From Chitinophagales bacterium (lineage in GTDB: Bacteria; Bacteroidota; Bacteroidia; Chitinophagales; CAIOSU01): a stretch of DNA of 64,000 nt. The stretch spans positions 10,303-74,302 of the forward strand of contig JAGYJT010000012.1 of NCBI GenBank assembly GCA_018401955.1, given 5' to 3'. The notes beneath the pieces are model-generated. The model worked only from the letters and a program-made list of their open reading frames with translations. It ran no database searches and was not told the DNA's origin. Within the stretch, counting starts at the first letter, position 1, and each line of letters opens with the position of its first letter. Positions 3,001 through 23,380 of the stretch are shown here, one piece after another. A program made the translations under genes and the position numbers.

Positions 3001-5889
3001 GATGACCTTGCGCTGTATTTCAATAAGCTCTTTATCTTCGGGCTTGACAGGGGGCTTTTTAGGAGGGGCAGGTGCACGCCGTCCTGTTTCAACAGGTAGC
3101 TCTTTCTCAACCGGAGCGCCCTTAGCTTCTTGAGTAACCTCATCAATATTACCGCGAAGCGCCTGCAGTGCAGGGCCAATACTGCGAATCCGACCTTCAG
3201 TTGTAGGCTTACTTACCCTATCAATAAAAGCTTGGAACGGTGCACGAAGTTTTAGTTCCGTGTCAGTGCGCTCTTCACCAGTCAAAGCAGGGCGTCGGGA
3301 TGTAAGCCGAGCTGCGTCAATTTCTTTCATAGCCTGCGTGATATAGGCATCGGCTGCTTGCGTAGCATCTCGTTGAAGTGTAGAAAATAACGACGTGCCC
3401 GCTTCTGGCGCACGGGTAAGCCCCGCTCGGAGTTGCTTTATTTCACCTTCAAGCTGCGTAAGTCGGCGTTGTAAATTAGCACTTGCTTGCGCATTACGTT
3501 GCACACCAGGCTGCGCCAAGCGGTCTTTAATCTGGTTGGCTTCTCTGGTAGCTAAAAATATCCGGTCTCGCAGCCCTTGATTGCGCTCGCGCTCTTCCGT
3601 TGCAAGTCTTTCAGGAACACCCTCACGATCACTAATAAACTGACCGCGCTGCAGGGGGTAAACAGCATCACGAAATGCTTCAAAAGCTGTATTTTTAAGC
3701 GGGGGTACGTCTTTGAACGCATCAATGGCGTCTTGTTCGGTAGGCGCGTCTTTTAACTCTCGTGTTTGCTGCTCTACCATACGACTAAACGGCTCTTGAC
3801 GCAGTTGTTCTTGTCGGTCAAGTTCTAGGGCTTGTTCAAACCTAGCCTGCGCATCCTCAGCGGCTCGTGCGTCTAACTTGGAAAGGCCAACCGTACGCAG
3901 ACGGTTAAGCTCCTGCATCTTGGCTTCATCGGCAACAGCCTGACGGCCTGCGTCGGTAAGCTCACCCTTTTCATCAAGTAGCTCGACCCGGTTATTAAGT
4001 ATGTCGTAGAAACGCCCCTGCCTCTGCTCGTTGAGCGAGCGCATTGCGTCTTCAATCTGGGGTAGGGCTTTGTCTGCAGTAGTACGCTTATCAACAGAAA
4101 TGCCAAGAAGCTCTGCCGTAGGGGGTAACACAATACCCCGGTTGATTTGCTCTTCAATCGCTTTACGGCGTGTGGCAGGAATACCCAGCGCAGACAAGCC
4201 CATATTCTCAAGGCCAAATTCAATGCGCTCAAGTGCTTTAGCCTGCGCCTCAGCCGCTTCTCTTTCTTGCTCTGTCTGCTGACGTGACTGTCGAATGATG
4301 CGCTTGGATACGTTGAATACGTTCTCACCACGCTGGATCTTGGCTTCTTCCTCAGCAACAAGCCGGTCTTGTTCCGCAAGCTGGGCTAGGTTTTCTTCAC
4401 CAAACAAAGAGGGTTGTGTCTGAGCCTGGGCGATTTCTGCTTCAAGAGCGTTTACTCTGCTTGCCAAACCCTCAATTTTGTCAAATTCACCAAGGTCACC
4501 AGCTTTTACAAGCGCCTTCTTAGCGGTATCCAGCTTTTTATTAAGCGCCGCAACAGGGTCCAGCCCACCTTCAACAGGCTTTACAAGCTTTACTTTATCT
4601 GCTTTTGCTTGTTCTTCAATCTGCTTGAGCATGCTTTGAAGGCGTTTACCTTCTTGAGATAGCTGTACAGCTTGGGCGCTATCGCCTGCCTGTGCAGCGG
4701 CAGCAGTGGGTTCTTTTAGTGCCTCAATCTGGGCTACGAGCTGCTGATATGTCGTTTGCAGTTCCTGCGCACGCTCAGCTTTGGCGGTTTCTTCTGCTTC
4801 AACTTCTTCTTGCCTTTGCCCAAGCATCGACACAGGACCTAACAGATCGCCCTGCATGGTGGCTTCTTCACCGGTTAGTAGGGGGGCACCTGCTTCTTCT
4901 GCAACCTTACGGGATTCTTCTTGGTCGGCAATTAGTTGTTGGCGGCGTTGCTCTTCAGCCGTAATCTCAGCTTCGCGCTTTTCAACAGCAGTCTGGATAC
5001 CACGACGCTCAAGGTAACGGCCCGGAGGGGCGAGCACGCCCCCAAGAACAGCGCCGCCAATAAAGCTTTCAAAGTATTCATCTCGGGCGTCTTCGTCGCT
5101 CATTGTTAGGCCAGCCTGTAAACGCTCAAGGGCCTGCTGCGCAGTTTCTGTCAACCCCTCCACGCCCATCGTGCGTCCCGTGGCTAAAGCGTAGTCAGCA
5201 GCGCCATCCTTTAGAGTCTTTTTGGCTACTTCAAGGGCCGCTTCTTCGGTGAGGTCTTTGCCAACCTGCCCAAAAATATTTCGGATAAACGGCAACATCC
5301 GCAAGCTAAGCGTATCGAGCGCCGCCTGGGGCACGGCTGCTAGGGCAGCGTTACCTAAATCCGTTTCGCCAATGCTTTTACCTGTCTCCATCTGACGGAG
5401 CAGGTTAGTACCCGTGAACTGAGCGCCTGAAGCAAGACCTGCCGCACCAAGACCAGCAACCGTAGCTGCCGTACCAGTAAGAGGTGCTAAAGCTGTGGCC
5501 CCAGCAGCGACAAGGGGCGCTGCCATATAGGGTAGAGACTGCCCAAGAAGTTCAGTAGTTTTAGTAAGGGGGGCTTCTAAAAAGCCTTCTTCGGTGGGGG
5601 CAAATGTACGGCGCTGGTAGGCTTGCTCTTCTTCAATGGCCTGTCGTGCAGCCTCCTCATCCATTAAACCCGTGCGCCCGAGGACGGCAAGACCAGCTTC
5701 TTTTACGCCAGAAACACCAGCTTTAAAGGCGGGGACAAATCCAGATTCGGGGGTTGCTTCGGGTTCTACAGGCGTAGGGGGTTGGAGCTGCGCCATTACG
5801 GCAGCTATGGCTTCTTCATCCGTTAACTCACGTCGTGAATTAACATCAAACGATCCCTGCCCAGGGATGTTTACTTTATAAAGGGGCAT
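1..5889 (-). CDS. Giant virion-associated protein, N-terminal 1,963+ aa (3' end outside window); possibly PLxRFG-type large internal protein
   Basis: ATG at 5889-5887. My manual translation of this frame reaches base 1 without a stop (5,889 nt = 1,963 codons). The ORF track shows only short out-of-frame ORFs here, and it appears to omit ORFs with no in-window stop. Begins MPLYKVNIPGQGSFDV, followed by long A/E/K/Q coiled-coil stretches. AAHELVGHYTLEGLLG lies near nt 1585-1612 and SRKDYIPFYR near nt 402-420. Confidence 0.75.
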   Translation of the reverse strand, partial: MPLYKVNIPGQGSFDVNSRRELTDEEAIAAVMAQLQPPTPVEPEATPESGFVPAFKAGVSGVKEAGLAVLGRTGLMDEEAARQAIEEEQAYQRRTFAPTEEGFLEAPLTKTTELLGQSLPYMAAPLVAAGATALAPLTGTAATVAGLGAAGLASGAQFTGTNLLRQMETGKSIGETDLGNAALAAVPQAALDTLSLRMLPFIRNIFGQVGKDLTEEAALEVAKKTLKDGAADYALATGRTMGVEGLTETAQQALERLQAGLTMSDEDARDEYFESFIGGAVLGGVLAPPGRYLERRGIQTAVEKREAEITAEEQRRQQLIADQEESRKVAEEAGAPLLTGEEATMQGDLLGPVSMLGQRQEEVEAEETAKAERAQELQTTYQQLVAQIEALKEPTAAAAQAGDSAQAVQLSQEGKRLQSMLKQIEEQAKADKVKLVKPVEGGLDPVAALNKKLDTAKKALVKAGDLGEFDKIEGLASRVNALEAEIAQAQTQPSLFGEENLAQLAEQDRLVAEEEAKIQRGENVFNVSKRIIRQSRQQTEQEREAAEAQAKALERIEFGLENMGLSALGIPATRRKAIEEQINRGIVLPPTAELLGISVDKRTTADKALPQIEDAMRSLNEQRQGRFYDILNNRVELLDEKGELTDAGRQAVADEAKMQELNRLRTVGLSKLDARAAEDAQARFEQALELDRQEQLRQEPFSRMVEQQTRELKDAPTEQDAIDAFKDVPPLKNTAFEAFRDAVYPLQRGQFISDREGVPERLATEERERNQGLRDRIFLATREANQIKDRLAQPGVQRNAQASANLQRRLTQLEGEIKQLRAGLTRAPEAGTSLFSTLQRDATQAADAYITQAMKEIDAARLTSRRPALTGEERTDTELKLRAPFQAFIDRVSKPTTEGRIRSIGPALQALRGNIDEVTQEAKGAPVEKELPVETGRRAPAPPKKPPVKPEDKELIEIQRKVINDNVVEVSNNQKKLARITTQLQKAGSELARLRKQVAGKKDPEARARIKELEKQMVAARKEAGILKNENKKTVELLKKQGVDTSINRDGEFVLRQIEEDGDWAQQQRDTRGAISVADRRSAVEALKKRITATQNRLKAAEKVEEDLTAALQIGRMKTPEGKELPVTKVRRELEDVAFEKRPEAIADELEILAKQRAELEKQKETATPKERQSIGGKLAANTKNANRLKAMQTVALPVRTKETIYGTAEDFSEMAEKQRRILLEDVKNQVTRKTELEVMTEAEGIARDQMKVAQAELNAAKDKREQMVAKAKLKSAQTALTRATVARYELQLKLEDLASDKTNANPDDNVFLSLEEADKELKDALSGYRKDANYDWRVGDTDFETAVDASEAAPFIKELEAKAKSQNIKFKVYKDFTEVPMKILKALANQGMSIYADKIKGGVAPDGEVFVIVSHHANLKDLEQTAAHELVGHYTLEGLLGKDGIRRLLKRVETSFPGDAKTGETGVFALAKELGVLREAGDAWLESVESTKALVAEGKMTKAQQVELARMKALREVLAYTTENYMDKAPASKEGAVKKFFKEILFAIRRWLTSSGFKEFKDVSTPELFSLIKSAYKTFDAGKAKTYRNTDGTISLRSAKPRFNPTVNQNVVNAVDKIVAPDTPAYEKLKANLSGLNFRTQFVDRLDSLERIKRIGQATLDKVGKPMLDSLKATDLLYFARKYGQRTSFVSEAMTSGVVQLMKDPKTGEFMLSRDLQKDAASMKGVALALSKAKFGDVQANENFMTAYMAAERAQSKAVGLSKLGANTTPADVKALLDAGRKDSAIQEARKLYNEYNSDLITLLEQSGYLSKAKAAEIKSRKDYIPFYRADASGTVNLFIGDEKIVKMGDLTEQPHLKELLGSDQKIRSIFVNSLQNTNMVMDLALRNLATRNVGFVLQGLDIAKRVGSGKAGTNIIRAKIDGKDEAWEIDTDGTVFGDIPAEIIVKGMDGIKTTIPGFMKL

Positions 5890-15131: not shown

Positions 15132-16162
15132 TACTCACTCCTTATTGCCATGTAAACATAGGTACCGCCGCTTGCATTAACATCGGCAGACGAGGATTTA
15201 ATTTGAAAGCCGGTAGTTAAAAAGTCAATACCCGGGGCACTATTGTTTACTGCATCGAAAGTATTTGCAGACAATGTTGCGGTACGTGTGTTACTTGGGT
15301 CTATTGATGCGCTATAAATAAGCCAAGGTCCGGTTGAATCAGCACGTTTAATCATTAACCATTGTGGTTCCCAACCAAGAGCCTCAATGGGACCAGTTGC
15401 AGATCCGTTGCCCGTGTATGAATCGCAGCTAATTAATCCACGGGTAGTAGTTTCATGCCCAAACAAAAATGCAAAAATATTAAACGCATTAGCGTTAACT
15501 AACGAGCTTGTACCAACAGAAAACACACTGCTAGTAGGTGCTGTATCGTTCCAAACTGTTGAATCAGTAGCCTCTGCGGCGGTTGAATTTAGTGTTAAGT
15601 ATTTTGTAGGACCCAGGCTGCGGTGAAACACACGCCAATCCCAAGAACCAAATGGCCCAGTTCGTTTTACCAACATCATTCCTGGCACTGCGTTTAGTGT
15701 ATGTGCAATAGTCCGGTTTGTGTCATTGCCAACAAACTTTACAAAACTAAAAAACTTTTCGGCTTCCCTGAAGCTCCAAGAAACAAAATTTGGAGTAGCA
15801 GGTGAACTAGGAGGAACATTAATAAGGCTACCGCTAGGAGCAGCATTCCACCCTGTTGCCGTAATTGGATTAGAGCTTGCCAAAAACCAACTCGAAGCTG
15901 CTATAGATAGATTTGGAAAAATAGAAGATCCAGAAGTTGAAGAACTATCTTGATAGGGTTGTATTACGTGATCAAAATTAACCGGGTTAGTGCCTTCCTC
16001 TAAATTTTTACACCAAATAAATCCCCCATTATTTAAAATATCAATATTGGTAATAACATTAAGAGTGGTGCCAGTACCACTGTATAGGCGTGAATTAAAT
16101 ACGTCTGCGATAGTATTGCCGCCTAGGCCAGCAGCGGCAGTTAGAATTATGCGAGAACTCAT
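15131..16162 (-). CDS. Fibre/structural protein with three internal repeats (343 aa from MSSRIIL)
   Basis: Start taken at ATG 16162, one nt after the stop of the upstream gene (the track ORF begins further upstream inside that gene). Three modules share a pattern: F/Y-x-G-x-G...hydrophobic-K-R/N... Confidence 0.5.
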   Translation of the reverse strand: MSSRIILTAAAGLGGNTIADVFNSRLYSGTGTTLNVITNIDILNNGGFIWCKNLEEGTNPVNFDHVIQPYQDSSSTSGSSIFPNLSIAASSWFLASSNPITATGWNAAPSGSLINVPPSSPATPNFVSWSFREAEKFFSFVKFVGNDTNRTIAHTLNAVPGMMLVKRTGPFGSWDWRVFHRSLGPTKYLTLNSTAAEATDSTVWNDTAPTSSVFSVGTSSLVNANAFNIFAFLFGHETTTRGLISCDSYTGNGSATGPIEALGWEPQWLMIKRADSTGPWLIYSASIDPSNTRTATLSANTFDAVNNSAPGIDFLTTGFQIKSSSADVNASGGTYVYMAIRSE

Positions 16163-16163
16163 A

Positions 16164-16925
16164 TTAAGCTGCCAACATATCGTAGCCAACCACAAAACCG
16201 TTCCATGTCGTACCTCCGTCATACGTGAAAAACGCCAAAACATCACGCCCAGAAGAAGTAAGCTCAGGGGTTTCCCCTCCAACCCATGTCAGGTTTGCGT
16301 ACCATGTAACCACAGCGCTGCCACCGTTAGTAATGTCAAGGATAAACGCTATTGCCGTACCGCTACTTGGTATATTGCTTACCGTAAACGTCGTAGCTGT
16401 CGTAACTGTGTGTGAAAAATAATTTCCAGAAGACAGGTTTATGTCGTTTGCCACCGTAGCAACTTTGACTTCTTTAGTAGCAACGATTGTTTTGTTACTA
16501 AGGGTTTGCGTACCTGCAAGAGTTACATCCCCCGCAATTCTAACAAAATCCGATCCGTTCCAAGCAACGACTGTGGCTACGTTTGTGGGTATTGTTACTC
16601 CCGTTGTAGCAGAACCTTTAATAACGATTGAAGAATCCGAAGTGTTAAATACGGCATAAACCTTACTAGCGCTTGGCGCTACAATATTTCGTGTCGTACC
16701 AGGGGTGCCTGTAGCAATTAATATCGCAGAACGTGATTGATCAGCAGCGCCATCCGTATCGGTCAGTGTGACATCTGCACTTGTAACGTTAACGCTAGTA
16801 GCCCCTGCAATTGCGCTATCAAGAAGCGAAGTAATTTCATTATTAACAACGTTTCCCCACGTACCAGCTAATTCGCCAGTAACAGGAAGCGCTAAACCAA
16901 GAAGGGTGGTATATGACGTAGGCAT
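16164..16925 (-). CDS. Tail fibre protein (253 aa)
   Basis: The N-terminus MPTSYTTLLGLALPVTGELAGTWGNVVNNEITSLLDSAIAG is a fibre N-terminal motif I recognise (L.LP..GE..G.WG...N). GGAG box upstream; T/S/V-rich beta-type sequence. Confidence 0.6.
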   Translation of the reverse strand: MPTSYTTLLGLALPVTGELAGTWGNVVNNEITSLLDSAIAGATSVNVTSADVTLTDTDGAADQSRSAILIATGTPGTTRNIVAPSASKVYAVFNTSDSSIVIKGSATTGVTIPTNVATVVAWNGSDFVRIAGDVTLAGTQTLSNKTIVATKEVKVATVANDINLSSGNYFSHTVTTATTFTVSNIPSSGTAIAFILDITNGGSAVVTWYANLTWVGGETPELTSSGRDVLAFFTYDGGTTWNGFVVGYDMLAA

Positions 16926-16928
16926 GGT

Positions 16929-16982
16929 TTACTCCGGTTGTATCCAAGATGTTGTTTCATTTAAAAATGCGTAATGTGTCAT
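16929..16982 (-). pseudogene. 17-codon relic (MTHYAFLNETTSWIQPE) of the 123-aa gene found intact at 18342-18713
   Basis: The first 8 codons match MAHYAFLDEN. The last codons match NEETTSWIGVQL of the full-length paralogue. The flanking DNA is part of a duplicated segment. Confidence 0.6.
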
Positions 16983-16990
16983 TTGTTTTC

Positions 16991-17866
16991 CTATGCGAAT
17001 GAGACGTTGCCTGTACCAGCAGTTACGGTAGTAACGCTAAAACCACCCGCCGTAGCAGTTGAAAGAGTAAGACCACCACCAGGGTTAGAGATAGTAAATG
17101 CACTTGAGTATTTAAGAATAACTACACCAGAGCCACCGGGTTGACCTGCACTATTAAAGCTTCCACCACCCGCCCCGCCGCCAGTATTTGCTGCGCCCGC
17201 AGTTGGGTTAGCGGTTGTAACTCCACCCGTATCCATACTTCCGCCGTCCCCACCACCACCTTGACCACCTGTGCCGCCAGTAAAGTCTTCAGCAAAAGCA
17301 CTTACAACCCCGCCGCCGCCGCCACCTCCTGCGTAGTAGACTGCGCTACCAGTAATAGAGGACTCAATACCAATCCCTCCATCGCCGCCTTCATAACCCA
17401 ATGTTACGGTACCTCCAACAGCGCCCATTCCACCGCCACCACCGCAGTTAAATGAAGCATTTGCATCCACCTTACCCGCACCACCGTTAAACCCTTGCGA
17501 TCCTGTACCACCTGCAAGGTCACCCTCAGCGCCACCACTCCCGCCGCAACCACCACCCAAACTAACACTAGTTCGACCCCCGCCACCACCACCACCGGTA
17601 GCAGTAAACGAACTAAAAACAGAATTAGAACCGTTACCGCCATTAGTTCCGTTAGAACTTGCTGCTCCCGCAGAACCGCCTCCACCTACAGTGACTGTGT
17701 ACGTTGTTCCGGGGACAAATACAAAGGCTGTGTCTTGAACAAGTCCACCAGCACCTCCGCCGCCACAAAATCCGCCTGTCCCCCCACCGCCAGCAACAAC
17801 TAAATAATCCAAAATCGGTGGTCCCCCAAAATTCATTCCCAAAAGGGCTAAATGGATTCCACTCAT
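16991..17866 (-). CDS. Glycine-rich fibre-associated protein (291 aa)
   Basis: DYLVVAGGGGTGGFCGGGGAGG followed by repeated GGxGG tracts. C-terminus GGSGVVILKYSSAFTISNPGGGLTLSTATAGGFSVTTVTAGTGNVSFA. Paralogue of 18722-19693. Confidence 0.6.
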   Translation of the reverse strand: MSGIHLALLGMNFGGPPILDYLVVAGGGGTGGFCGGGGAGGLVQDTAFVFVPGTTYTVTVGGGGSAGAASSNGTNGGNGSNSVFSSFTATGGGGGGGRTSVSLGGGCGGSGGAEGDLAGGTGSQGFNGGAGKVDANASFNCGGGGGMGAVGGTVTLGYEGGDGGIGIESSITGSAVYYAGGGGGGGVVSAFAEDFTGGTGGQGGGGDGGSMDTGGVTTANPTAGAANTGGGAGGGSFNSAGQPGGSGVVILKYSSAFTISNPGGGLTLSTATAGGFSVTTVTAGTGNVSFA

Positions 17867-18345
17867 GGTGCTACGTTCCCTGAAATAACACAGACTGTGC
17901 CGCTAATAAACAAAATCGTGCAAATGCCTCGGGTTGCCAAATCAACCGTTGCCTCATCGCTATCTGCACCCGCTATGTACGCCGTTGTAATTGTGCAAGT
18001 AATCGTAATGTCACCTGATGTGTTGTTAAAGATTGAAATAACATCGCCCGCCGAAAAAGTAGCGTCAGGGATTGTGATTGACCCGCTTGCCCCAACCTCA
18101 ATAAATTTGCCTACGTCGCCTGTTGCTAAAGTGTAAGAAGCAGTTTTAGCCGAACCTGACTGCGGGATATTTAAGAAACCAACGGAGGAAAAACTAAGCG
18201 CTCCCGACCCGTTTGTAACAACCGCTTGCCCGCTAGTACCATCCGTACCTGGCAATGTAAACGTAGTATCCGAGTTGGTGTTAGCTGTTTGCAGCGTGGT
18301 CGTTCCGGTCCCGCTTGCGTTACCTGAAATTTTTATATTGCTCAT
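17863..18345 (-). CDS. Fibre-like structural protein (160 aa from MSNIKISG)
   Basis: ATG 18345 overlaps the upstream stop (ATGA). The N-terminus MSNIKISGNASGTGTTTLQTANT...LPGTDGTSGQAVVTNGSGALSF is typical of short phage fibres. Confidence 0.5.
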   Translation of the reverse strand: MSNIKISGNASGTGTTTLQTANTNSDTTFTLPGTDGTSGQAVVTNGSGALSFSSVGFLNIPQSGSAKTASYTLATGDVGKFIEVGASGSITIPDATFSAGDVISIFNNTSGDITITCTITTAYIAGADSDEATVDLATRGICTILFISGTVCVISGNVAP

Positions 18346-18713
18346 AACTGCACCCCAATCCAAGATGTTGTTTCTTCGTTCCATTGATAATACTTACCAT
18401 CGTCTGGATAAGCTACTGGTGCTTCCCATAAACATGTTGTTTCATTCAGGTTCCACGATACATAAGGCTTAGGTGAAATAAATGCATCACGCTCAGAATC
18501 ATAGGTGTATCCAACCCCTGCGTAGTTCTTGCGGTACGGTGTGCCATCACTAAAATGAACGCCGCCTTGAGTGTTGTATGAGGTGCGCTTGCAAGTTTGA
18601 CCACGAAACGCACCATAGTGCTGTTCCCAGTCAATGCCGTCTTCACCCTCATCTTTGCCCACAATCACCTCGGTGACAATGTTGTTTTCATCTAAGAATG
18701 CGTAATGTGCCAT
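18342..18713 (-). CDS. Conserved phage protein MxHYAxLDENN family (123 aa), fibre-module associated
   Basis: Intact ORF with an AGGA box. The N-terminus MAHYAFLDENNIVTEVIV is a recurrent phage small-protein signature (from memory). Function unknown. Confidence 0.5.
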   Translation of the reverse strand: MAHYAFLDENNIVTEVIVGKDEGEDGIDWEQHYGAFRGQTCKRTSYNTQGGVHFSDGTPYRKNYAGVGYTYDSERDAFISPKPYVSWNLNETTCLWEAPVAYPDDGKYYQWNEETTSWIGVQL

Positions 18714-18721
18714 TTGTTTTC

Positions 18722-19693
18722 CTATGCGAATGAAACGTTGCCTGTACCAGCGGTTACTGTTGTTACCTTAAACCCACCAGCAGGTGCGGCAGTTGAAAGA
18801 GTAAGACCACCGCCAGGGTTAGAAATGGTAAGTGTGTCAGGGTATTTGAGAATTACTACACCAGAGCCGCCATTACCTCCTGCGCCTCGAATCGGAGAAA
18901 GTCTTTGGTCGTATCCGCCACCACCAGCACCGCCACCGGTGTTTGCAGACCTGTTTGCGCTTATTGGCTAAATTTCCAGCGCCACCACCGCCCGCCCTGC
19001 CAGCACCAGCCGCAGCCAAAAGACTACAGCACCTGCGCCGCCACCGCCACCACCAGCGTATGTCGTGGAAGAACCTGAAATAGATGACGCTGTGCCTGCA
19101 CCGCCAGCCCCGCTTTGAACCGACGCTGTATTACCACCAACGGCCCCAGCCCCTCCACCACCGGCTGCTGGATTGGTAAAACCAACAACAACATCACCGC
19201 CATTGTTGCCTTGAGAAGGTGCTGTTGAAGGAGTGTTACCAACGCCACCAGTTTGAGCACTACCACCCCCACCAGAAGCACCAGAACCAGAACCACCAGC
19301 ACGACCAGGTTTTGCACCACCCACCGCAACACCGCCACCGCCTCCAGCAGATGTAATGGTTGAAAAAACAGAATTAGCCCCGTCACTACCATCATTAACA
19401 CCATTGCTAGCACCGCCTGTCCCGCCCGCTCCAACAGTAACGGTATAGTTTGTTGCGGGAGTAATCGGAGTAAGAGTTCCGGTTCTATAACCGCCAGCGC
19501 CAGCACCTGAGCCTAATCCAGAACCACCCCCACCTCCACCAGCAACTACAAGGTATTCGACATCAACAGAAAAAAAGGGCCAATCGCCAGCCTCTATTGC
19601 TTTGAATTGCTCTTGCAGGCTCCAAATGCCAGACGCAACAGTATCTGTTGGGTTGTTTGCTACCCCAATTATTCCGCCATTACCGATAGGCAT
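18722..19693 (-). pseudogene. Glycine-rich fibre-associated protein paralogue, interrupted (in-frame TAG at 18968-18970 and local frame disturbance)
   Basis: ORF 18968-19693 stops at TAG. The same frame then continues ...ANTGGGAGGGGYDQ...GGSGVVILKYPDTLTISNPGGGLTLSTAAPAGGFKVTTVTAGTGNVSFA* to 18722, homologous to the C-terminus of 16991-17866. Between ~19,035 and ~18,965 a different frame gives the expected Gly-rich text (AAAGAGRAGGGGAGN). Confidence 0.6.
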
Positions 19694-20067
19694 TAGCTGA
19701 TCTCCTCGTAGCTACACACCACCTTTAGGTCACTTGCCGCCGAAGCCGTTGCACCAATAGACTTGTCTTCTTCCAAATAAATTGAGGTGTCTTTAGAAAT
19801 AACTACCAGAGAAGCATCAGCCGGGACAGATACAGTGCTTACAATTTCCGTAGCTGTTCCACCAATGTTGTCTTCTGAATAAATGCTGATCGTTATATCA
19901 GCCGCAGACGATCCGTCCACATTGGAGACAATTAACGAGTTGATTTTAAAAACTTTGCCACTTGCTGCTGTATTTTCTACAACCAAGGTTGCGTTAGTGG
20001 TGGACAGGTCCACAACAGCAGTCTTGCCACGAATGTCTGTAACGTTAACAATATTTGGGTTTGCCAT
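19693..20067 (-). CDS. Hypothetical virion protein (124 aa)
   Basis: Intact ORF with AAGGAG 6 nt upstream of the ATG. Beta-rich T/S/V composition. Lies in the fibre module. Confidence 0.4.
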   Translation of the reverse strand: MANPNIVNVTDIRGKTAVVDLSTTNATLVVENTAASGKVFKINSLIVSNVDGSSAADITISIYSEDNIGGTATEIVSTVSVPADASLVVISKDTSIYLEEDKSIGATASAASDLKVVCSYEEIS

Positions 20068-20077
20068 TTAAAACTCC

Positions 20078-20608
20078 TTATCCAAAAACTATTGACATGG
20101 CAATAGCCTTACCTACTGTAGCCACGTTTCCCGTACCGGGTGGTGTTGTTGACAAGATAAACCAAGAATTACTTCCTAAAAGTGTCACATCCACACCGGA
20201 CTCAATAGTGATAGGACCAACGGAAAATCCGTTGTAGTTAGCAAGGAAAGTAAAATCTTCACTTAATGTATTGCTGTTTGTAATGATTCCAGAACTAGCG
20301 CCACCAAACGCAGAACGGCTCGATGGATACGTTACAAACACATCCTTACTGCCAGCCCCCCAGCTAACAGCATTGCCTGAATTGGACGAACTAAGAATTG
20401 CGTCTCTATTTAAAGTTGTGCCTGATGATGTGAACGTACCAATCCCGACTTCCCAATCGGTGCCGTCGGTTGTTGTGTAGTACGTGGTATTTCCATCACC
20501 AATAGCACTAAAGTCTTGAAAGCCTGTGCTGGCTGAACCAAGCGTATAAGCCCCCGTGCCCGTTGTCGTGCTGGTAACCTTGACTCGATCTGCTACAACG
20601 AAAGCCAT
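20078..20608 (-). CDS. Fibre-like protein (176 aa)
   Basis: AAGGAG box. The N-terminus MAFVVADRVKVTSTTTGTGAYTLGSASTGFQDFSAIGDGNTTYYTTTDGTDWEVGIGTF matches a common phage fibre N-domain (V..T..TTGTG...L.G....F....dg....Y...dg..WEvG.G). Confidence 0.55.
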   Translation of the reverse strand: MAFVVADRVKVTSTTTGTGAYTLGSASTGFQDFSAIGDGNTTYYTTTDGTDWEVGIGTFTSSGTTLNRDAILSSSNSGNAVSWGAGSKDVFVTYPSSRSAFGGASSGIITNSNTLSEDFTFLANYNGFSVGPITIESGVDVTLLGSNSWFILSTTPPGTGNVATVGKAIAMSIVFG

Positions 20609-22660: not shown

Positions 22661-23380
22661 TTACATCACCGGGATCTTAATTTGACCATTACGATAAGCG
22701 TCGCCTCTTTCCATCCCATCACCAAGGCGTTTAGCTAACATCATTGCTTCATCGTAACGCTTCTGATACCCAGCAATGACATCAGGCTCGCCCTTCATAT
22801 AGGTGTAAGCCTCTAAGAGCGAACCGTATAGCAAGACGCTGTCAAAGTTATCTGCAAGCCAAGTCGTTGATGCAGTGACAATAGACTCAGGGTAGTAATA
22901 GTAGTGAAGTTCAATATTGTATGCAGCATCTGGTGTTGGACCAAGAATAAAGCTGTATTCATTTGTAATCACAGCAGGAACAGTGTTTGTCGTTGTTGGT
23001 CCAAAAATAGCGTAGTACTGAGGTTTGCCTGTAGCAGTAGGGCTTGGAAAAGATTGCCGTATAAAGTTGACATCTTTGTTGAGCAAAAACTCATACTCGC
23101 CGGTTACTAAATCAATAACCGCCATTGAATAAACAGCAAGGAAGTCAGACGGACTAGAGAGGTACTTATTGTTAGGTGTGACTGGGCCAGTGACGTTATT
23201 ACGAATAGCTGGGAACTGAACCGAGTTATAAATCCTTTGTTCAGCCTGTTGGATAAACGTATCGATCTGTTCTTTTGACGTAAATGTAACGTTTGCAGCG
23301 GTGGGATCACCGAACTGCGTGTTTGGGAAATCGTTTTCGCAATATCCCTTGATCGTCTCAAACAGAGTCGTATAGTTCAT
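22661..23380 (-). CDS. Neck/adaptor-region structural protein (239 aa)
   Basis: Intact ORF, similar in size to and adjacent to the 238-aa adaptor-like gene. No catalytic motif seen. Confidence 0.35.
   Translation of the reverse strand: MNYTTLFETIKGYCENDFPNTQFGDPTAANVTFTSKEQIDTFIQQAEQRIYNSVQFPAIRNNVTGPVTPNNKYLSSPSDFLAVYSMAVIDLVTGEYEFLLNKDVNFIRQSFPSPTATGKPQYYAIFGPTTTNTVPAVITNEYSFILGPTPDAAYNIELHYYYYPESIVTASTTWLADNFDSVLLYGSLLEAYTYMKGEPDVIAGYQKRYDEAMMLAKRLGDGMERGDAYRNGQIKIPVM

Follow-up and report, generated by a model that had tools for sequence, protein, structure and literature searches.

A 17-codon hybrid reading frame as a probable module-swap joint in the distal fibre locus of a podovirus-like phage

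The stretch of DNA analysed here (the window, 64,000 nucleotides (nt)) corresponds to positions 10303-74302 of contig C24 of the Chitinophagales bacterium assembly GCA_018401955.1 (3.49 megabases, 153 contigs, 79% complete). The contig is part of a Bacteroidota metagenome-assembled genome, and what it carries here is the distal fibre, or receptor-binding, locus of a podovirus-like phage or prophage. Within this locus, an open reading frame (ORF) of only 17 codons, hereafter the relic, is found between a glycine-rich fibre-tip gene and a fibre gene. Its 5' end matches one small accessory gene, MxHYAFL, and its 3' end matches another, p138, so that it is a hybrid of the two. The relic is thus best explained as a recombination joint produced by a module swap in the fibre locus, a reading to which we assign a probability of about 0.8. 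Every gene between 14 and 24 kilobases (kb) of the window is carried by the minus strand, and the genes are tightly coupled. The features surrounding the joint are listed below in transcription order.

18722-19693, minus strand: GlyA, fibre-tip gene of cassette 1 (Gly_rich_2, A-type body; PF21722, E 1.3e-17)
18686-18871, minus strand: copy A of the repeated junction block, which runs from the C-terminal beta-strand block of GlyA over the stop codon and the spacer GGAAAACAA to codon 9 of MxHYAFL
18342-18713, minus strand: the intact MxHYAFL gene, 123 residues (phrog_7759, E 1.5e-39)
17863-18345, minus strand: fib160, a small fibre or adaptor protein (weak tail-fibre PHROG matches; conserved in the contigs L138 and C34), with ATGA coupling to both neighbouring genes
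17823-17866, minus strand: putative left boundary of the swapped module, the first 14-15 codons of GlyB, MSGIHLALLGMNFG, 44 nt common to the Lcl_C-type gene of L138, L142 and C34
16991-17866, minus strand: GlyB, an intact Gly_rich_2 fibre-tip gene of 291 residues (PF21722, E 3.8e-21)
16929-16982, minus strand: the relic, 17 codons, MTHYAFLNETTSWIQPE and a stop, between GlyB and fib253
16949-16958, minus strand: the 10-nt microhomology GAAACAACAT, from comparison of the relic with the MxHYAFL 5' end and the p138 3' end of L138
16164-16925, minus strand: fib253, the fibre gene 3' of the joint (tail-fibre PHROG matches; about 99.5% identical to L138)

The relic is composed of 28 nt from the 5' end of MxHYAFL (16982-16955, through ATGAAA) and 30 nt from the 3' end of p138 (16958-16929). 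The window contains the first part at two places only, 16955-16982 and 18686-18713, against a chance expectation of 0.00. In the relative L138, p138 ends in AYRWDEETTSWIQPE and a stop codon (tail WDEETTSWIQPE), and, counted from GAAACAACAT, at least 107 nt of the window show no difference from L138, a stretch that spans the stop codon and the GGAG and reaches into fib253; only about 4 differences are found in the first 700 nt downstream of the joint. The relic tail, QPE followed by a stop, matches p138, whereas MxHYAFL ends in GVQL. The GGAG that serves as the fib253 ribosome-binding site lies inside the last relic codons, and the relic ends 3 nt before the fib253 ATG. An earlier, sequence-only reading of this DNA had interpreted the relic as a clean internal deletion of about 320 base pairs (bp) within a single gene. 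This part of the reading lacks support in that form, since the last 30 nt of the relic and the DNA downstream are those of p138 in L137 and L138. Slippage within one gene would leave both deletion flanks from that gene, and here the 3' flank and the QPE tail belong to p138; the mini-ORF is therefore probably something other than an internal deletion of one gene. By contrast, the correspondence between the relic and MxHYAFL was confirmed: in addition to the 28-nt match, the 17-mer GAAACAACATCTTGGAT is present exactly twice in the window (16942-16958 and 18358-18374), again with a chance expectation of 0.00. With the MxHYAFL profile hidden Markov model (HMM), the hmmsearch match to the relic is confined to positions 1-10 (9 bits), far from a full-length family member. 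The relic also carries the substitution A2T, a residue seen in none of 87 family members, which points to relaxed constraint.

The comparison with relatives carries the argument further. These were found by searching with the MxHYAFL protein and then looking up the contigs concerned. The closest homologue, P0001 (93% identical), is encoded by the metagenome contigs L137, L138 and L139 (20-63 kb), which belong to a near-identical phage. Their gene order is p176, p124, a single intact Gly-rich gene of 317 residues (Gly*), MxHYAFL, fib160, a 212-residue Lcl_C (PF07603) protein, the 138-residue p138, fib253, DUF7483 and the assembly protein. The sequence-only reading had called for related phages to be compared for single-cassette and double-cassette states; L137-L139 carry a single Gly-rich gene, and the site of GlyB and the relic holds Lcl_C and p138. 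A search for fib253 relatives in viral and metagenome contigs returned only distant ones, which match part of the protein at no more than 66% and have no MxHYAFL gene in their vicinity. The blastn alignments between L138 and the window are as follows.

L138 1-5155 and window 24734-19577: 95.7%
L138 5172-6028 and window 17811-16955: 95.0%, no gaps, 857 nt
L138 5846-6891 and window 18871-17823: 92.8%
L138 7883-10676 and window 16958-14155: 93.8%

The window blocks 17811-16955 and 16958-14155 overlap by only 4 nt. In L138, the segment 5172-6028 lies at the relatives' first cassette position, where it covers the Gly-rich body and the junction block and extends 28 nt into MxHYAFL; GlyB corresponds, at 95%, to the one Gly-rich gene of the relatives, which occupies that position. 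The flanks are about 99.5-100% identical to L138 (0 mismatches over 20300-19701, 3-4 over 16958-16259), the shared interior genes differ by 5-7%, and the identity switches abruptly, exactly at the joint, where the two blocks abut at 16955/16958. Each of the two parental arrangements occurs in nature: Gly* followed by a full MxHYAFL gene in L137, L138, L139, L140 and L141, and fib160 followed by an Lcl_C-type gene in L137, L138, L142 and C34, the latter being a contig of the same assembly as the window. C34 is 99.4% identical to window positions 18970-17825 and then continues with an Lcl_C-type gene 90.7% identical to that of L138. Among the contigs compared, the arrangement of GlyB plus relic is found only in this window. 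Because the relatives hold Lcl_C and p138 in place of GlyB and the relic, and because C34 carries this alternative allele as well, the relic is most readily understood as a module-swap joint. The earlier view of the relic as a recombination scar from exchange of receptor-binding modules is thereby upheld, the joint being hybrid and both parental arrangements having been recovered.

The sequence-only reading had also described two modules of the same layout, with a repeat at the Gly-rich 3' end and the adjoining junction, and both descriptions are accurate. The repeat covers about 185 bp (16955-17137, copy B, against 18686-18871, copy A) with 83% identity. A repeat search found it as two sub-blocks, 16955-17050 against 18686-18781 (88%) and 17042-17137 against 18776-18871 (80%), and in a blastn alignment of 191 columns the two copies were 83.2% identical and differed by two indels, of 3 nt and 1 nt; the longest exact runs shared by the copies are 23 nt. 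It contains the non-glycine C-terminal block of the two Gly_rich_2 genes, the stop codon, the ribosome-site spacer, the ATG and 9 MxHYAFL codons, and encodes GSGVVILKY..ISNPGGGLTLSTA..GGF.VTTVTAGTGNVSFA up to a stop (the block GSGVVILKY...TAGTGNVSFA). The similarity is thus not low complexity of glycine codons, the objection that had been raised beforehand: the block is non-glycine and homology extends across the junction. The gene between the two fibre genes of the upstream module, described as intact, indeed matches phrog_7759 over positions 1-121 of 125.

The L138 junction block is identical to copy B at 190 of 199 positions and to copy A at 165 of 198. Copy B is thus the 95% counterpart of the L138 junction and copy A a different allele. 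In a junction tree, copies A and B are sisters with moderate support (0.86). Junction DNA is conserved at 70-77% even between unrelated contigs. For the block shared by the two copies, synonymous divergence (dS) is about 0.55 and non-synonymous divergence (dN) is 0.08, values which suggest that its conservation reflects mainly protein-level constraint rather than recency. A recent tandem duplication of the cassettes is ruled out by this dS and by the Gly-rich bodies of GlyA and GlyB, which are only 49% identical; moreover, GlyB matches the relatives' first-position gene.

The junction had also been put forward as a candidate recombination hot spot, and this suggestion gained ground. The difference between the A-type and *-type alleles at the first position has its right boundary in the same junction block, where the match to L138 resumes with 23 exact nt, TCATTCGCATAGGAAAACAAATG. 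In addition, positions 3909-3956 of the contig L090 carry a 15-codon MxHYAFL stub (MAYYAFIDEQNTVTG and a stop) that overlaps the Gly-rich stop codon. This stub is followed by about 45 nt with a TATAAT-like sequence and AGGAGG, and then by a complete MxHYAFL gene at 4001. A pattern scan for short M.HYA ORFs in about 100 fetched loci had found none; a later junction-based scan found this one. The L090 stub appears to be a second recombination stub of the same family, on an independent contig, and together with the boundary between the A-type and *-type alleles it marks the junction block as a recurrent breakpoint.

A mechanism can be proposed for the swap. The Lcl_C body and all of p138 except its last 30 nt would have been replaced by an 857-nt piece that comprises the *-type Gly-rich body with its C-terminal block and runs on through the stop codon and the spacer into MxHYAFL, of which it includes the first 28 nt. 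GlyB is accordingly a chimera, with its first 44 nt from the Lcl_C-type allele and the remainder from a *-type body. The right-hand crossover would have been non-homologous, with nucleotide 28 of MxHYAFL and the 3' end of p138 brought together at a microhomology of 10 nt, GAAACAACAT, which p138 carries because its tryptophan-rich (W-rich) C-terminal domain is common to p138 and MxHYAFL. Joining in frame would have yielded the 17-codon mini-ORF with its own ribosome site and start codon, and, since the stop codon and the GGAG serving fib253 are kept, the translational coupling of the operon would be preserved. The remaining intact MxHYAFL could then serve GlyB in trans. Both the direction of the event and its occurrence in one step are inferred, and several observations weigh against this scenario. 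At the left joint, the next 11 nt (17822-17812) match neither L138 parent, the Gly* body beginning only at 17811; these nucleotides are similar to what MSG-type Gly-rich genes of other phages naturally carry at the N-terminus. Between the window, C34 and L138 lie at least three breakpoints (about 19700/19577, about 18740, 17823 and 16958), which do not fix the order or direction of events. Neither the exact relic nor the junction DNA patterns were found elsewhere in viral contigs or in the genome contigs, and both joints rest on a single assembly. Finally, a two-step path, homologous exchange in the shared C-terminal domain followed by deletion through GAAA(A)CAACAT slippage, would give the same final sequence, although less economically.

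The alternative closest to the original interpretation is a deletion in situ, in which a full-length MxHYAFL gene between GlyB and fib253 lost about 315 nt by slippage at GAAA(A)CAACAT, possibly after an initial step that produced a full-length hybrid of MxHYAFL and p138. The intact paralogue does contain suitable repeats: the motif occurs three times (18689-18679, 18443-18434 and 18374-18365), and deletion between its 10-11-nt copies at nt 25-35 and 340-349 of the gene would be in frame. The identity of the 17-mer at its two sites is compatible with such an event, as are the tandem Gly-rich/MxHYAFL cassettes with both copies intact in L096, L028 and L093. However, the QPE tail and the downstream DNA match p138 of L137 and L138 and not the GVQL end, no relative carries a full MxHYAFL gene at this site whereas four independent contigs carry Lcl_C(+p138), and the sharp switch to about 99.5% identity falls exactly at the joint. 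Deletion also requires one event more than a single join at microhomology, and we regard it as unlikely.

Considerably less probable still is that C24 is a chimera of co-occurring strains, the double cassette and the relic being present in no single molecule. The same phage is indeed represented in the bin by several variant contigs (C34 at 99.4%; C17, C20, C41, C48 and C49 at 75-90%), and the compensating frameshifts of GlyA described below are suspicious, as they occur exactly where C34 begins. But the parents share 10 nt at the right joint and nothing at the left, where the 11 nt come from neither L138 parent. Such overlaps are far below the usual k-mer sizes of assemblers, so that reads spanning the joints would have been required, and it would be odd for a random mis-join to be in frame at both joints with start and stop contexts kept. 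As for mere resemblance, in which the ORF would be an unrelated short gene or a non-coding spacer that happens to look like the termini of the family, it could draw on the shortness of the ORF and on a profile match of only 10 residues. It is scarcely credible given the 28-nt and 17-nt matches with a window chance expectation of 0.00, a context fully syntenic with the conserved Gly-rich/MxHYAFL junction, and a 3' part identical to the p138 3' end.

The two glycine-rich genes differ in their state. Both exceed the Gly_rich_2 gathering cutoff of 24.3 bits, GlyB with 76.6 and the N-terminal part of GlyA with 65.1. As assembled, three-frame translation shows GlyA to be disrupted by a -1 shift at about 19040-19015, a TAG at 18968-18970 and a +1 shift at about 18962, which leave an out-of-frame patch of about 70 nt between two compensating shifts. 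C34, which begins exactly at 18970, lacks the extra A of GlyA (AAT-GGCGC against AATAAGCGC) and reads NLANGANGSANTGGG in frame at this second site. Either GlyA is truly a pseudogene, or the assembly is wrong in a repeat of glycine codons. Close A-type relatives that could help to judge them were searched for and none was found, the best being 47-64% identical over part of the protein. The first 117 nt of GlyA are common to L138, and its body beyond that point is unalignable. If the shifts are real, the phage would have one working adhesin, GlyB, and one working MxHYAFL, from different cassettes. The AlphaFold2 model of GlyB has a mean confidence score (pLDDT) of 86, and Foldseek relates it with probability 1.00 to the Bxb1 tip protein (9d93, E 1.6e-4) and to Pam3 gp24 (7ypx_A, E 2.3e-3), with template modelling scores (TM-scores) of only 0.31-0.40. 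Weak Foldseek matches to the glycine-rich domains of ALK/LTK were also obtained, and no sequence-level match to PDB chains was found.

MxHYAFL belongs to phrog_7759, an uncharacterised phage family of pelagiphages, roseophages, cyanomyophages and Methylophilales phages. A tblastn search with the protein recovered 39 phage records, among them genomes of Pelagibacter, Roseobacter and Methylophilales phages and of cyanophages, in all of which its annotation is 'hypothetical protein', and the protein search scored at least 8000 clusters, none of which has a name or a Pfam domain. No model for the family was found in Pfam or NCBIfam. The invariant residues include H3, T44, S45, W87, W111, E113 and W118. 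The AlphaFold2 model (pLDDT 95.8) gave no Foldseek match in the PDB at E<=0.001 (5yvq_B aligned over 16 columns with E 4), sequence and profile searches of the PDB gave none either, and in BFVD only uncharacterised viral proteins match. p138 resembles both profiles in its C-terminal half only: this half matches the MxHYAFL HMM at positions 73-120 (E 4.6e-14) and phrog_7759 at profile positions 71-120 (E 1.9e-9), and the N-terminal half matches neither. What p138 shares with the MxHYAFL family is thus only the W-rich C-terminal domain.

The gene order around MxHYAFL is itself conserved. In viral contigs, 80 homologues have enough sequence upstream to be compared, and for 52-57 of them the start lies at most 60 nt from a gene that ends in the Gly_rich C-block, a placement immediately 3' of a fibre gene that is typical of chaperones. 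Identification of MxHYAFL as a tail-fibre assembly chaperone (PF16778 Phage_tail_APC, TfaMu or Pam3 gp25) was tried and rejected: PDB profile searches, Foldseek against the PDB and BFVD, NCBIfam and hhalign were all negative, the hhalign comparison with a PF16778-type alignment giving a probability of 0.03. A chaperone-like role would therefore be suggested by gene order alone. Another 14 of the 80 loci carry a 2-oxoglutarate-Fe(II) oxygenase between the gene with the Gly-rich C-block and MxHYAFL (L029, L040, L042, L049, L063, L065, L066, L071-L073, L087, L089, L098 and, in phage DSL-LC04, L009:4397-5017). This enzyme of about 200 residues (PF13759) often overlaps the Gly-rich stop codon, and modification of the fibre tip is a possible role. 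In CRP-207 and HTVC025P, MxHYAFL comes immediately after the gene of a protein whose C-terminal domain is PF21722, whereas in DSL-LC04 the oxygenase lies between them. Tandem arrays of 2-3 intact pairs are found in L096, L028, L093, L058 and L032. Judging from these loci, the Gly_rich_2 tip gene and the small phrog_7759 gene form a conserved, portable pair in aquatic phages. A more far-reaching proposal, which we put forward only tentatively, is that MxHYAFL and p138 are members of one unnamed and very large family, whose accessory proteins have two domains and a new fold. Each would combine a shared W-rich C-terminal domain with a partner-specific N-terminal domain and be dedicated to the tip gene just upstream, Gly_rich_2 or Lcl_C, and GlyB would be served in trans by the remaining MxHYAFL while GlyA decays. 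If this is true, loss across the two cassettes would be complementary, with GlyA broken and its partner intact, and GlyB intact and its partner reduced to a stub.

The remainder of the locus comprises the following genes.

22661-23380, minus strand: SU10-type adaptor (PF24175), first in transcription order and followed by several small fibre-module genes
20078-20608, minus strand: p176
19693-20067, minus strand: p124, directly before GlyA
After fib253 in transcription order, minus strand: DUF7483 protein, of which the stretch 15259-16258 was compared with L138
14679-15131, minus strand: PF16778 tail-fibre assembly protein (profile match)

The DUF7483 stretch is patchy relative to L138, with up to 34 mismatches per 100 nt, between the nearly identical fib253 and assembly-protein genes, and seems to be another hypervariable part of the locus. 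The fib160 homologue has 128 residues in L137 (6369-6755) and 160 in L138 (6369-6851), the next gene starting one base later, which is likely due to a single-base indel in one of the two contigs. From about 38.8 kb to 64 kb, the window encodes an NAD-dependent DNA ligase, a fatty acid desaturase, PorP/SprF and Omp85. The same part (about 38800-64000) also encodes proteins sorted by the type IX secretion system (Por_Secre_tail, CHU_C) and a gyrase/topoisomerase IV subunit A, and has a lower GC content. Some of these genes are typical of Bacteroidota, and the phage region is therefore either an integrated prophage or joined to host DNA in assembly, as a chimeric contig. No tRNA gene was found across the window, and window positions 16000-20000 matched nothing in 40 related host genomes. 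Six short contigs of the same bin (C17, C20, C34, C41, C48 and C49) match parts of the phage region at 75-99%, so that the bin holds fragments of several related phage strains.

Mosaicism of fibre loci by homologous and illegitimate recombination is textbook knowledge, and the case described here, a well-documented instance of it with moderate-to-low novelty, will not surprise specialists. Tailed-phage genomes contain mosaic 'novel joints', and in T-even phages the distal tail-fibre and adhesin genes gp37/gp38 recombine at conserved motifs (Tetart et al. 1998, according to the citation in PMC3157838; Trojet et al. 2011, PMC3157838). The window shares with them the exchange of host-recognition modules between related phages, in or beside the most conserved blocks, with abrupt changes of identity at the joints and glycine-rich adhesins. 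Unlike in the T-even phages, the genes are PF21722 and phrog_7759 members rather than gp37/gp38, the parental arrangements come from metagenomes rather than crosses, and one joint is non-homologous, a 10-nt microhomology between two different accessory genes that left a translatable 17-codon hybrid stub. With respect to phrog_7759, the intact gene at 18342-18713 is a full-length member, whereas the relic keeps only 9 N-terminal codons and takes its C-terminal codons from p138. A second parallel is the gene pair of the cyanophage Pam3, whose fibre gp24 (PDB 7YPX) has a beta-sandwich and a glycine-rich domain as receptor-binding tip, with the chaperone gp25 encoded downstream (PMC9608196). The GlyB model resembles gp24 and the Bxb1 tip glycine-rich protein (PDB 9D93) over nearly its whole length, which would mean a beta-sandwich and a glycine lattice at the fibre tip, and here too a small gene lies directly downstream of the Gly-rich gene. 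Nevertheless, the low TM-scores and the lack of a sequence-level PDB match set GlyB apart from both proteins, and MxHYAFL has no significant fold or profile similarity to gp25, TfaMu or PF16778.

The locus thus offers a cleanly resolved natural example of how phages re-equip their host recognition, for which both parental arrangements and the recombinant are available, the crossover is placed within a 10-nt microhomology, and the other allele is present in the same assembly. Of further interest is a very abundant and unnamed gene pair of aquatic phages, a PF21722 tip and a phrog_7759 protein (at least 8000 protein clusters, a confident AlphaFold2 model and no similar solved structure), whose function is open to testing.

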